Positions 57,878 through 60,828 of a stretch of DNA of 64,000 nucleotides are shown one piece after another (position 1 is the stretch's first letter; the number at the start of each line of letters is the position of its first letter). The translations under genes and the position numbers were made by a program. The notes beneath the pieces were generated by a model. That model ran no database searches. It had not been told where the DNA came from and saw only the letters and a program-made list of their open reading frames with translations. The stretch is from positions 59,116-123,115 of the forward strand of contig JAGXNO010000005.1 in the NCBI GenBank assembly GCA_019894975.1. The letters run 5' to 3'. Origin of the DNA: Promethearchaeota archaeon. Its GTDB lineage: Archaea; Asgardarchaeota; Lokiarchaeia; Sigyniarchaeales; SOKP01.

Positions 57878-58402
57878 ATGAGAATGACAGAATACGATTT
57901 CACATTTAAATTAATGATGTTAGGGGATGCTTCAGTGGGTAAAACATCACTGACTCTTAGATATATCTCAGGATACTTTATGCAAGATTTAAAACTAACT
58001 TTAGGTGTTGATTTCTATTCTAAAACAACACAATACAACAGTAAAACTATTAAATTACAAATCTGGGACTTTGGTGGTGAAGAACGATTCAGATTTCTAC
58101 TTTCTCAATACAGTAAAGGAGCAAATGGAGCCTTCTTCTTATATGATATAACAAATCCTATGAGTCTAGAACATTTACCTGATTGGACACAAATCGTGAG
58201 AGAGAACGCGGGAGATATCCCTATAATGCTTATCGGTTCAAAAAAAGATCTAGATGAATTTCGAGCAGTTCCACGCGAAGAAGGGATACAAGCTGCAAAA
58301 AAATACAATTTAGCTTCATTTCTTGAATTATCTTCTAAAACTGGGGAAAATGTCGAGAAAGCTTTTGATGTTTTGAATGAATTCCTTTTTGAGGATTATT
58401 AG
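57878..58402 (+). CDS. Rab-like small GTPase
   Basis: FKLMMLGDASVGKTSL, TLGVDF, LQIWDFGGEERFR, GSKKD, ELSSKTGENV. No C-terminal Cys. Confidence 0.92.
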   Translation: MRMTEYDFTFKLMMLGDASVGKTSLTLRYISGYFMQDLKLTLGVDFYSKTTQYNSKTIKLQIWDFGGEERFRFLLSQYSKGANGAFFLYDITNPMSLEHLPDWTQIVRENAGDIPIMLIGSKKDLDEFRAVPREEGIQAAKKYNLASFLELSSKTGENVEKAFDVLNEFLFEDY

Positions 58403-58493
58403 TACCTTATTATTTCTTGCCTTATATCAAATTTTAATGACTTTACAGATTATAATAAAATAATTTAAATTCAATAAGATGAAAGGGAATAAT

Positions 58494-59018
58494 ATGAACA
58501 ATGAAGAACCACCAAGACCTGCTGGAATAGATATAAAAATTAACGCACCTCAAATAGATACTGTCGACATTTATGATAACCACATTAATTTAAACGATCT
58601 TCTTAACGACTTTAATGGTGTTTTAATAGATTTTTTTCGAGGAAACTGGTGAAGTCATTGCAAGAAACATTTAAAACTATTGACAGAGAATTTATCAGAA
58701 TTTAAAAAACGTAAAATAAAACTTCTATCAATTGCAAGCGATAGTGCTAGGTTATTGAAATTATTTAAAGAAGACAACAATTTTGAAGTCGATATGATAT
58801 CTGATCGCGGTGCAAAAATAGCTAAAGAATATGGTGTTTACTGGTATGCTCCTGGAGGAGGAAAAGACTATAAAATAAAGCAGGCTGTTCCAAGTAAATT
58901 TTTAATTAATAAAGATGGGATTATTGTATGGAAATATATTGGTAAAGATAAAACTGATAGACCTTCCATTGAAATGATGACATCTATTATTGATAAGTAT
59001 ATTCAAAATCCCAATTAA
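58494..59018 (+). CDS. Peroxiredoxin-like (AhpC/TSA) selenoprotein with UxxC active site
   Basis: One frame from ATG 58494 (alternative ATG 58479) to TAA 59016-59018 with a single TGA at 58650-58652 in FFRGNW-U-SHC. Downstream Prx-like motifs ISD...IAKEYGV and PSKFLINKDG.IVW.YIG..DRP. SECIS-like hairpin follows. Confidence 0.9.
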
Positions 59019-59070
59019 GGATGAATCATCTGTGAAAAAACGAGACAGGTGAGGACACCCCTGTGTGGGG
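59010..59070 (+). promoter_or_regulatory. Eukaryote-type SECIS element in the 3' UTR
   Basis: ATGAA (59021-25) and GGAC (59053-56) form the tandem G.A core. 8-bp stem TCATCTGT/ACAGGTGA, A-rich loop GAAAAAACGAG, lower pairing CCCA..AGG/CCT..TGGG. Confidence 0.85.
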
Positions 59071-59075
59071 GGGGA

Positions 59076-59098
59076 TTTTATTTCTTTTTCTTTTTTTT
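59076..59098 (+). terminator. Oligo-T tract, probable archaeal terminator after the SECIS
   Basis: TTTTATTTCTTTTTCTTTTTTTT directly after the hairpin. Confidence 0.5.
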
Positions 59099-59169
59099 AA
59101 AAAATTCTTGTAGTTAATTTTTTATTTACTATTTTATATGTAATGTTCAAAAATTAGTATACAACATTT

Positions 59170-60828
59170 GTGAAGTTTATGTTTAATCGAGCGTTTACAA
59201 AGTTTTTAGATAAGAAACCATTAAAGGAAGAACTATATCCATATCTGTATTCTATTGCATTTAAGGAACTTGGAAAACCCAAAAAGGAGACTAAAAATGA
59301 ACCAATTAGATGTAAAAACTGTGAAGCCGTTTTTACTGATATAAAATTAATTCAAGAAGACCCTCAAAAAGGTTCTTATTATGTTTGTGAATATTGTGGG
59401 ACAATCAATAAAATAGACAAGTCTAAGATTGAGAAGAACCTCCCAAATGATATAGATTTTATTTTAATAGAAGCTTTAAAAAAAGGCTCTAAAAAAGAAG
59501 AAAAAATCACGAAAGTAGACATTACTGAAGGAGATCTTTATTTATCTGTAATAGATATCTCTGGTAGCATGAGTGGTGCTAAAATTGAAGCTGTTAAGAA
59601 ATCGCTAATTCAAACCTTAAAGGATTTCAAAATTAATTCACCCACAACAAAATATATTTTAATAGCATTTGAAAGCTCGGTCTACTATTATTTAAGACAT
59701 GATCAAAATCCCTTTAAGTATCATGGCGATTTATTATTTTCGTTAGAAAGTATGAAAGAACGATTAAAAAAATCTACCAAGAAGGACAGGTTCTTAGGTT
59801 CTATCGGAGAATTTGCAGATGGTTGGATAAAGAGGGTTGAAAGCCTAACATCAATGGATATGACCGCATTAGGCCCAGCATTATATTTTGCTATTAATAC
59901 TTTTGAAATATTCAACTATACCGGAAGAACTACGTTGCTGACTGATGGTATAGCAAACACAGGAATTGGGAATTTATCTGGTACCAGTTCTGGAGCTAAA
60001 AAATTCTATGAAAACATGGCAGAATTATGTAATCAAAATAATATCATTGTTGATGTTGTGGGGGTATCTGGCTCTGGAGACAACAATGAAATGGGGCTTC
60101 AAACGTTAGGAAAACTTACCGATAAAACGGGAGGAACCCTATACTTAATATCAAGCGAAGAAATGGAGACAATATTCTCCGAACTCAGGCAAATGAAATA
60201 TGTAGGAAAAGATGTCAAAGTAAAGATCATAGTTCCCCCAAGTATTAATATTGCGAACATTACTGGTGCTTTCAGTTCAAAAGGTGCATTTAAAGGTTCT
60301 GAAATAAATTTAGGGGCAATTACAGAAGATCGAGAATTATTCTTAGAATTAGAATCCCCTGAAGGTAAAGTTGAGAAAGAAGAAGTTCCTGTCCAACTTC
60401 AAGTGGAATATATTGATAATGAAGGTCATAAAAGAATGAGAGTTATTACTGATAAAGTAAAGGTTACTACTGATGAAAATGAATTTATATCCCAATATGA
60501 CCAGAAATTTAACGTTGTAATGAATATTCAAAGAGCTGGAGGCGGGTATTATGCTGGAAAAACTAAAGAATCAAAGGAAAAGTTAAGAAGCTTAAGACGT
60601 AAGATTTCAGGTGAAATGAATTATAGGAACTCATCAGGTTTGGGTATTATTGGACATTCTTTTTCTGCAGGATTAGCTTATCTAGATGATGAACTTGAAG
60701 AGATTGATATGGAAGAAAAAAAAGCAGCTCAAGCACCTACGCAAAGCTATTGGGCCGTAAAGGGTCAAAAAAGAGCAAGAACGTCTCTTAATACTATGAA
60801 GAAGCGTAGGGAAAAGAAGAAAAAATAG
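59170..60828 (+). CDS. Sec23/Sec24-like protein: zinc finger, vWA (trunk) domain, beta-sandwich and helical tail
   Basis: PIRCKNCEA...YYVCEYCGTIN zinc finger. IDISGSM, TALGPAL and LLTDG.AN.GIG vWA motifs. QLQVEYIDNEGHKRMRVIT resembles the Sec23/24 beta-barrel end. Confidence 0.75.
   Translation: MKFMFNRAFTKFLDKKPLKEELYPYLYSIAFKELGKPKKETKNEPIRCKNCEAVFTDIKLIQEDPQKGSYYVCEYCGTINKIDKSKIEKNLPNDIDFILIEALKKGSKKEEKITKVDITEGDLYLSVIDISGSMSGAKIEAVKKSLIQTLKDFKINSPTTKYILIAFESSVYYYLRHDQNPFKYHGDLLFSLESMKERLKKSTKKDRFLGSIGEFADGWIKRVESLTSMDMTALGPALYFAINTFEIFNYTGRTTLLTDGIANTGIGNLSGTSSGAKKFYENMAELCNQNNIIVDVVGVSGSGDNNEMGLQTLGKLTDKTGGTLYLISSEEMETIFSELRQMKYVGKDVKVKIIVPPSINIANITGAFSSKGAFKGSEINLGAITEDRELFLELESPEGKVEKEEVPVQLQVEYIDNEGHKRMRVITDKVKVTTDENEFISQYDQKFNVVMNIQRAGGGYYAGKTKESKEKLRSLRRKISGEMNYRNSSGLGIIGHSFSAGLAYLDDELEEIDMEEKKAAQAPTQSYWAVKGQKRARTSLNTMKKRREKKKK

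Follow-up and report, generated by a model that had tools for sequence, protein, structure and literature searches.

A probable Prx-like selenoprotein gene with a lokiSECIS at its 3′ end in a Promethearchaeota genome

Background

The locus described here raises the question whether a TGA codon, placed inside the redox box of an archaeal gene, ends translation or is read as selenocysteine (Sec), and which RNA signal would direct such a reading. The window, that is, the whole stretch of DNA analyzed, has a length of 64,000 nucleotides and belongs to a Promethearchaeota MAG (Lokiarchaeota, Loki-type Asgard). An earlier note, made from the sequence alone, had proposed a UGA-recoded selenoperoxiredoxin with a eukaryote-type SECIS at 58494-59070. 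We read the region as a Prx-like (PrxL) selenoprotein gene whose UGA is read as Sec under the direction of a downstream lokiSECIS, and a probability of about 0.95 is given to this reading. The open frame, the protein domain, the conservation of the UGA, the machinery genes and an RNA motif with covariation were observed, and each of them is presented below.

Coding frame

The 112-aa ORF listed for this region (58680-59018) was found to be the C-terminal tail of a longer gene, as the earlier note had said. The same frame is open from an ATG at 58494 and is interrupted by a single in-frame TGA; readthrough gives a product of 174 aa, and translation with U at the TGA gives FFRGNW-U-SHC, with the TGA at the first position of a thioredoxin-type CxxC box. 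The features of the coding part are as follows.

58494-59018, plus strand: CDS of the PrxL selenoprotein, 174 aa plus TAA, with conserved start ATG 58494
58479-58481, plus strand: alternative in-frame ATG of the ORF list, which would add MKGNN (5 residues)
58650-58652, plus strand: UGA probably decoded as selenocysteine (U53), with which the UxxC redox box begins
58659-58661, plus strand: codon of Cys56, putative resolving Cys of U-S-H-C; the protein has no further Cys
59016-59018, plus strand: TAA stop codon, seen in the sequence; helix I and AUGA flank the internal loop in which it lies

The ATG at 58479 was considered as a start and rejected. The orthologues lack this Met and conserve one directly before (N/D/E)EEPPRP, and by this comparison it is probably not the start of the PrxL CDS. 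One Pfam domain, AhpC-TSA (PF00578, E 2.7e-22), covers residues 17-146 and spans the TGA.

The upstream neighbor (57878-58402, plus strand) encodes a Ras-family small GTPase (PF00071, E 4e-46), and the downstream neighbor (59170-60828, plus strand) encodes a protein in which the trunk and beta-sandwich domains of Sec23/Sec24 are recognized. Ras-family GTPases and Sec23/Sec24-like proteins are eukaryote-signature proteins which are typical of Asgard archaea.

Conservation of the UGA codon

Orthologues were found in 42 of the 53 genomes of the genus with an identity of 66-91%, and the codon in the U column is TGA in 30/30 orthologues despite the saturation of synonymous sites (dS about 1.3-1.5). 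The dN/dS ratio is 0.15 over the 45 codons upstream of the UGA and 0.08 downstream; judged by these ratios, the part of PrxL upstream of the UGA is under purifying selection, and loss of conservation in this N-terminal part had been named beforehand as a sign against the gene. Because the AhpC-TSA domain crosses the TGA, the TGA is kept throughout the orthologues and the upstream codons are constrained, the region is taken as a single coding sequence.

In a wider survey of 400 genomes of the phylum a homologue is present in 102, and every close homologue has one or two in-frame TGAs; homologues free of TGA were only distant ones of other families, at E about 1e-11 to 1e-15. The earlier note had suggested an alignment with AhpC/TSA homologues to see whether Cys occupies the TGA position, and this is the case in one distant Asgard homologue (L110), which shows FYRGGWCPNC with Cys in the Sec column. 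The true Prx relatives L106/L107 show YPADFSTPC at the active site.

The main alternative for this part of the evidence is that the TGA is a true stop, leaving a pseudogene or two small ORFs (57 aa and 112 aa) with an incidental hairpin behind them. Standard gene calling does yield a product of 112 aa at this locus, and most public records agree with it, their calls having 112-117 aa and the names ‘peroxiredoxin family’ or ‘redoxin domain’; such a truncation had been foreseen for standard pipelines, and other public entries have a W at the TGA. However, one domain runs across the supposed stop, the upstream part has a low dN/dS, more than 100 homologues from 16 genera invariably carry TGA at the catalytic position, and Sec machinery and a SECIS are both present (see below), and hence very little weight is left to a true stop.

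Some further observations were made on the homologues. Many relatives (L043, L047, L049, L052 and L064; for example G177:C3:11176-12434) carry a one-Sec PrxL gene and, about 200 nt behind it, a two-Sec UxxU paralogue, and both of these tandem copies have a SECIS of their own; in the genome of the window the two-Sec copy lies on another contig, C92. The order-level relatives L111, L112 and L113 have PrxL homologues with U in NFFRG(H/S)Y-U-VPC. One relative genome, G138, is a single contig of 6.04 Mb.

Protein fold and redox box

The AF2 model of the protein has a pLDDT of 88.7 and places U53 just before helix 54-65, at its N-terminus. The best fold match in PDB was Bcp4 (3hjp) with TM 0.82/0.90. 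This Sulfolobus protein belongs to the BCP/PrxQ peroxiredoxins, with which the overall fold is shared and a sequence match of E 5e-11 was obtained. Cys56 also falls in the column of the peroxidatic Cys of Bcp4, whereas Sec takes the place of the Thr. In a single pairwise HMMER alignment with 3hjp, the catalytic Arg, that of KRSVFVID, lies opposite the invariant Pro133. With ResA/TlpA (4nmu; sequence match E 6e-10) a W-C-x-x-C type box at the start of a helix is common, whereas by overall fold and Pfam score the window protein is closer to AhpC/TSA, and, unlike in ResA/TlpA, no signal peptide or membrane anchor was found in it.

The term ‘selenoperoxiredoxin’ goes too far. The peroxiredoxin signature PxxxT/SxxC is absent and RGNW-U-SH-C stands in its place. 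Because this signature is lost, Sec lies at the Thr position and Cys56 is the only Cys in 174 aa, the protein is assigned to the Prx-like (PrxL) class with a thioredoxin-type redox box and not to the canonical selenoperoxiredoxins.

The SECIS hairpin

The hairpin elements proposed in the earlier note, namely AUGAA, an 8-bp stem, an A-rich loop, GGAC and then poly-T, were all seen in the sequence at the positions given below, the SECIS starting 371 nt downstream of the UGA at 58650 and its AUGA 2 nt after the TAA.

59021-59024, plus strand: AUGA of the predicted kink-turn core, kept without change in 8 further elements of this genome and in 29 orthologues
59025-59033, plus strand: helix II, 5′ strand, 9 positions, the first being A.G
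59034-59044, plus strand: apical loop of 11 nt, GAAAAAACGAG, with G as first base, six A and the end AG
59045-59053, plus strand: helix II, 3′ strand
59054-59056, plus strand: GA of the core plus a conserved C, within GGAC 59053-59056
59081-59098, plus strand: oligo-T tract seen in the sequence, a T-run being found behind the element in orthologues too

Helix II has 8 standard pairs (59026-59033 with 59045-59052) plus A.G at 59025/59053. In the (G/A)AC segment the A and C are invariant in the 8 other elements of the genome and the first base is G or A. The UGA within AUGA is in frame with the CDS and serves as the actual stop codon in 6 of the 30 orthologues. The oligo-T tract is likely an archaeal transcription terminator.

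The published features of a lokiSECIS are found here: AUGA before the stem, a stem of 9 positions, a loop of 11 nt which is A-rich and ends in AG, GAC after the stem and a position 2 nt past the TAA. There are two deviations, a G instead of A as first loop base and A.G at the first stem position, and both of these positions vary among accepted elements. The proposal of a eukaryote-like SECIS of the AUGA...GA type in 3′ position is thereby borne out, and the hairpin itself is conserved (AUGA in all 29 orthologues, with compensatory changes in helix II given below).

A pattern scan of the genome for SECIS gave 58 matches, which are mostly chance, and about 10 of them have an A-run loop. These A-run elements sit behind HdrA, a VhuD-type gene and two PrxL paralogues, among others; in the two paralogues, which have one and two TGAs, the SECIS lies 18-24 nt after each stop. 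A covariance model (R1) was built from 8 other elements of the genome, which had been picked by a pattern that demands pairing, with the element at 59021 left out. Its sole match in the 64-kb window was 59015-59063 (39.8 bits, E 1.9e-7), the next best scoring 12.4 bits, so that a Loki SECIS model of the kind suggested in the earlier note finds only the predicted site. No match to the Rfam SECIS families was obtained in the whole window at the gathering score, nor in 58900-59200 at E up to 10; permissive Rfam matches to SNORD41 and STnc100 (E about 1) were discarded as chance.

It may be argued that this 3′ structure is only a terminator or an mRNA-stabilizing hairpin and that recoding is directed by something else, as a GC-rich hairpin followed by oligo-T stands at the end of the element and no Rfam SECIS family is matched. 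Against this, the invariant AUGA, the A-run loop and (G/A)AC are common to the elements behind HdrA, VhuD-type and PrxL paralogue genes, no other conserved structure was found between the UGA and the stop, and an oligo-T run alone is generally considered sufficient for transcription termination in archaea. A role as terminator or stabilizer only is accordingly regarded as hardly credible, and the lokiSECIS remains the preferred signal.

Three side observations concern elements elsewhere. R1 gave an extra match of 36.5 bits at G000:C93:20536-20585 (-), which was missed by the fixed-length pattern and which folds into the three-helix layout described in the next section. At G000:C87:80117-80151 (-) a lokiSECIS lies 7 nt past a 169-aa ORF (L029) with an adjacent TGA pair, ..HAD-U-U-AD.., and this ORF is outside the five classic Loki selenoprotein families. 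In the 3′ regions of L111, L112 and L113 the AUGA...GA core is absent; to the eye, the L113 region resembles a basal helix with an A-rich-loop hairpin and a further side hairpin, and this family may have a different SECIS form.

A predicted three-helix junction around the hairpin

The hairpin was found to lie inside a larger fold with the following parts.

59003-59084, plus strand: whole SECIS element as a predicted three-helix junction (model R2, MFE fold)
59005-59012, plus strand: helix I, 5′ strand, AAAAUCCC, inside the codons Q-N-P (MFE, covariation)
59058-59071, plus strand: helix III, GC-rich side hairpin, CCCCU-GUGU-GGGGG (MFE, RNAalifold)
59072-59079, plus strand: helix I, 3′ strand, GGGAUUUU (MFE, covariation)

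Two details of the earlier note had to be corrected by this fold. The lower helix does not overlap the stop codon, as its 5′ strand lies in the last codons Q-N-P and the stop falls in the internal loop, and the element does not end at 59070, as the 3′ strand runs on to 59079.

For 59003-59082 the junction is both the MFE and the centroid structure (-25.2 kcal/mol, z -2.25). A first fold of 59010-59100 had given z about 0 and a misleading MFE, because one strand of helix I, the 5′ one, was cut off by that range. Folded singly, most of the 29 orthologues likewise have the junction layout as their MFE structure, and it is seen in 9-10 of 10 elements of the genome which stand behind different genes and have unrelated helix I sequences; helix III is present in 9-10/10 of these elements, 1-3 nt after GAC. 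The 5′ and 3′ flanks of one and the same element pair more stably than flanks taken from different elements (mean -7.8 vs -4.6 kcal/mol; p about 1e-4 by permutation, some of the compared elements being related). On a plain MAFFT alignment RNAalifold recovered helices II and III, and helix I was missed owing to a wrong alignment of the 3′ side in six sequences.

A covariance model of all three helices (R2) was built from 17 orthologues with the window sequence left out, and it matches the window element with 70.3 bits and E 2e-13 over model positions 1-84. It also matches the non-PrxL elements of the genome at full length, and full-length matches were obtained in 60 of 61 genomes of the family and in 13/13 genera, including one genus where the PrxL query matched nothing. 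Compensatory changes were counted in 9/9 pairs of helix I, 8/8 of helix II and 3/4 of helix III in a 54-sequence alignment, which was fitted to R2 and carries the known bias towards the model.

In a sister genus the CDS stops before it reaches helix I; there the helix belongs to the 3′ UTR and changes in a paired manner (for example CCCGU/ACGGG and CUUCCAA/UUGGAAG). Helix I varied there and yet paired, and is therefore constrained as RNA. Read from the codons, the C-terminal N-P-N of the window protein is encoded by helix I.

That the Loki-type SECIS forms a three-way junction and not just a kink-turn hairpin, with helices I and III as functional parts of the signal, is put forward as a tentative and still rather doubtful proposal.

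Selenocysteine machinery and genetic code

The Sec machinery, whose search had been recommended along with the prediction, was found in the genome: tRNA-Sec (62.6 bits; called tRNA-SeC with anticodon TCA by ARAGORN), SepSecS (E 9e-116) adjoining it, EFSec/SelB (248 bits) on the same contig as these two, a PSTK-like gene (E 5e-36 over full length; 125 bits vs an NCBIfam cut-off of 290), and two adjacent SelD copies with one in-frame TGA each (G000:C108:10686-12773 (-)). The gene is concluded to encode selenocysteine, as had been claimed, because the TGA is kept despite saturation, Cys stands at its place in a distant homologue and the machinery is present.

A general reading of TGA as Trp or Gly (code 4 or 25), to which some public predictions with W at the TGA on short contigs could point, can practically be dismissed, because TGA is an ordinary stop which ends 248/1881 long ORFs of the genome (13%) and also some of the orthologues themselves (the six named above), in-frame TGAs occur only where redox proteins with a SECIS behind them have Cys positions, and a tRNA-Sec with anticodon TCA and its synthesis genes are present. 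The full-length public predictions (P0002-P0030) show GNWWSHCK, or WWxxW for two-Sec forms, and the W at the Sec position is evidently a TGA translated as Trp on short contigs.

Proposed mechanism

In the Sec reading, the UGA at 58650 would be decoded by Sec-tRNA(Sec) with anticodon UCA, which the Sec-specific elongation factor of archaea would bring to the ribosome. Recoding would be directed by the lokiSECIS through its predicted AUGA/GA core of tandem G.A pairs, the 9-position helix II and the 11-nt A-rich loop. Helix I would close the junction by pairing the last sense codons with the bases just before the oligo-U terminator, and, as the T tract follows directly behind helix I, the SECIS may make up essentially the whole 3′ UTR. 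The stop codon would lie in the internal loop, with 3 nt separating it from helix I on its 5′ side and 2 nt from AUGA on its 3′ side. From this position we infer that a terminating ribosome must unfold the signal, and that the signal would have to form again by the time another ribosome arrives at the UGA, 371 nt upstream. Helices I and III are a possible docking site of an Asgard SECIS-binding factor. In the mature protein, Sec53 is most likely the nucleophile which attacks the substrate, and Cys56 would resolve the intermediate into a selenenylsulfide.

Relation to known selenoproteins and SECIS elements

The earlier note had held this class to be probably known from Lokiarchaeota, and two papers agree with it (PMC4989117, PMC11227280). 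PrxL selenoproteins with lokiSECIS were described in Lokiarchaeota by Mariotti et al. in 2016, who defined the element by AUGA, a 9-bp stem, an 11-nt loop and GA (or AA) near the CDS end, with a loop that starts with A's and has an ultraconserved final G, usually preceded by A (PMC4989117). Their elements are likewise reported in that text to be without a Rfam SECIS match, and the overlap of SECIS and CDS and the use of the UGA of AUGA as stop codon have both been published before. The PrxL.2 genes of PMC4989117 share with the window gene the AhpC/TSA-type protein with Sec at the first redox-box Cys and no other Cys, and the same hairpin behind the stop with an AUGA that is in frame and sometimes is the stop codon. 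The text of that paper describes a single stem-loop, whereas the window hairpin lies within a three-helix junction which reaches into the last codons.

Prx-like selenoproteins were reported by Huang et al. in 2024 in 43.2% of Sec-using Asgard genomes (PMC11227280). The window element agrees in every point with their type I eSECIS-like model, which has a GA_[G/A]A core with an upper stem of 7-15 bp and a loop of 8-20 nt. Family-specific lower-stem features are reported there for frhA and selD and not for prxL, and a mention of the side hairpin was not found in the text portions covered (PMC11227280). With the eukaryotic type I SECIS (Rfam SECIS_1) the window element shares the 3′ location, the AUGA...GA non-Watson-Crick core, the unpaired apical A's and the order of helix I, internal loop and helix II; it differs by an extra side hairpin 3′ of the internal loop and by touching the stop codon. 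In the literature covered, no SBP2 is known in Asgard archaea.

The gene family and its signal were thus published in 2016 and 2024, and the window gene adds little biology beyond them. The three-helix architecture was not found in the main-text portions covered of PMC4989117 and PMC11227280 or in a full-text search; within these bounds the three-helix model is the sole part of the finding that may be new, and its priority is uncertain.

Meaning of the finding

The truncated or Trp-translated public entries hide the catalytic residue of this gene and of many orthologues. A fuller model of the Asgard SECIS, one that includes helix I and the side hairpin and is backed by covariation, could improve selenoprotein finders, and the three-helix model gives concrete mutants for asking what recognizes the SECIS in organisms without SBP2. 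If this model is true, RNA structure would determine the C-terminal N-P-(N/K) of the protein, and the signal would be melted by each ribosome that terminates.
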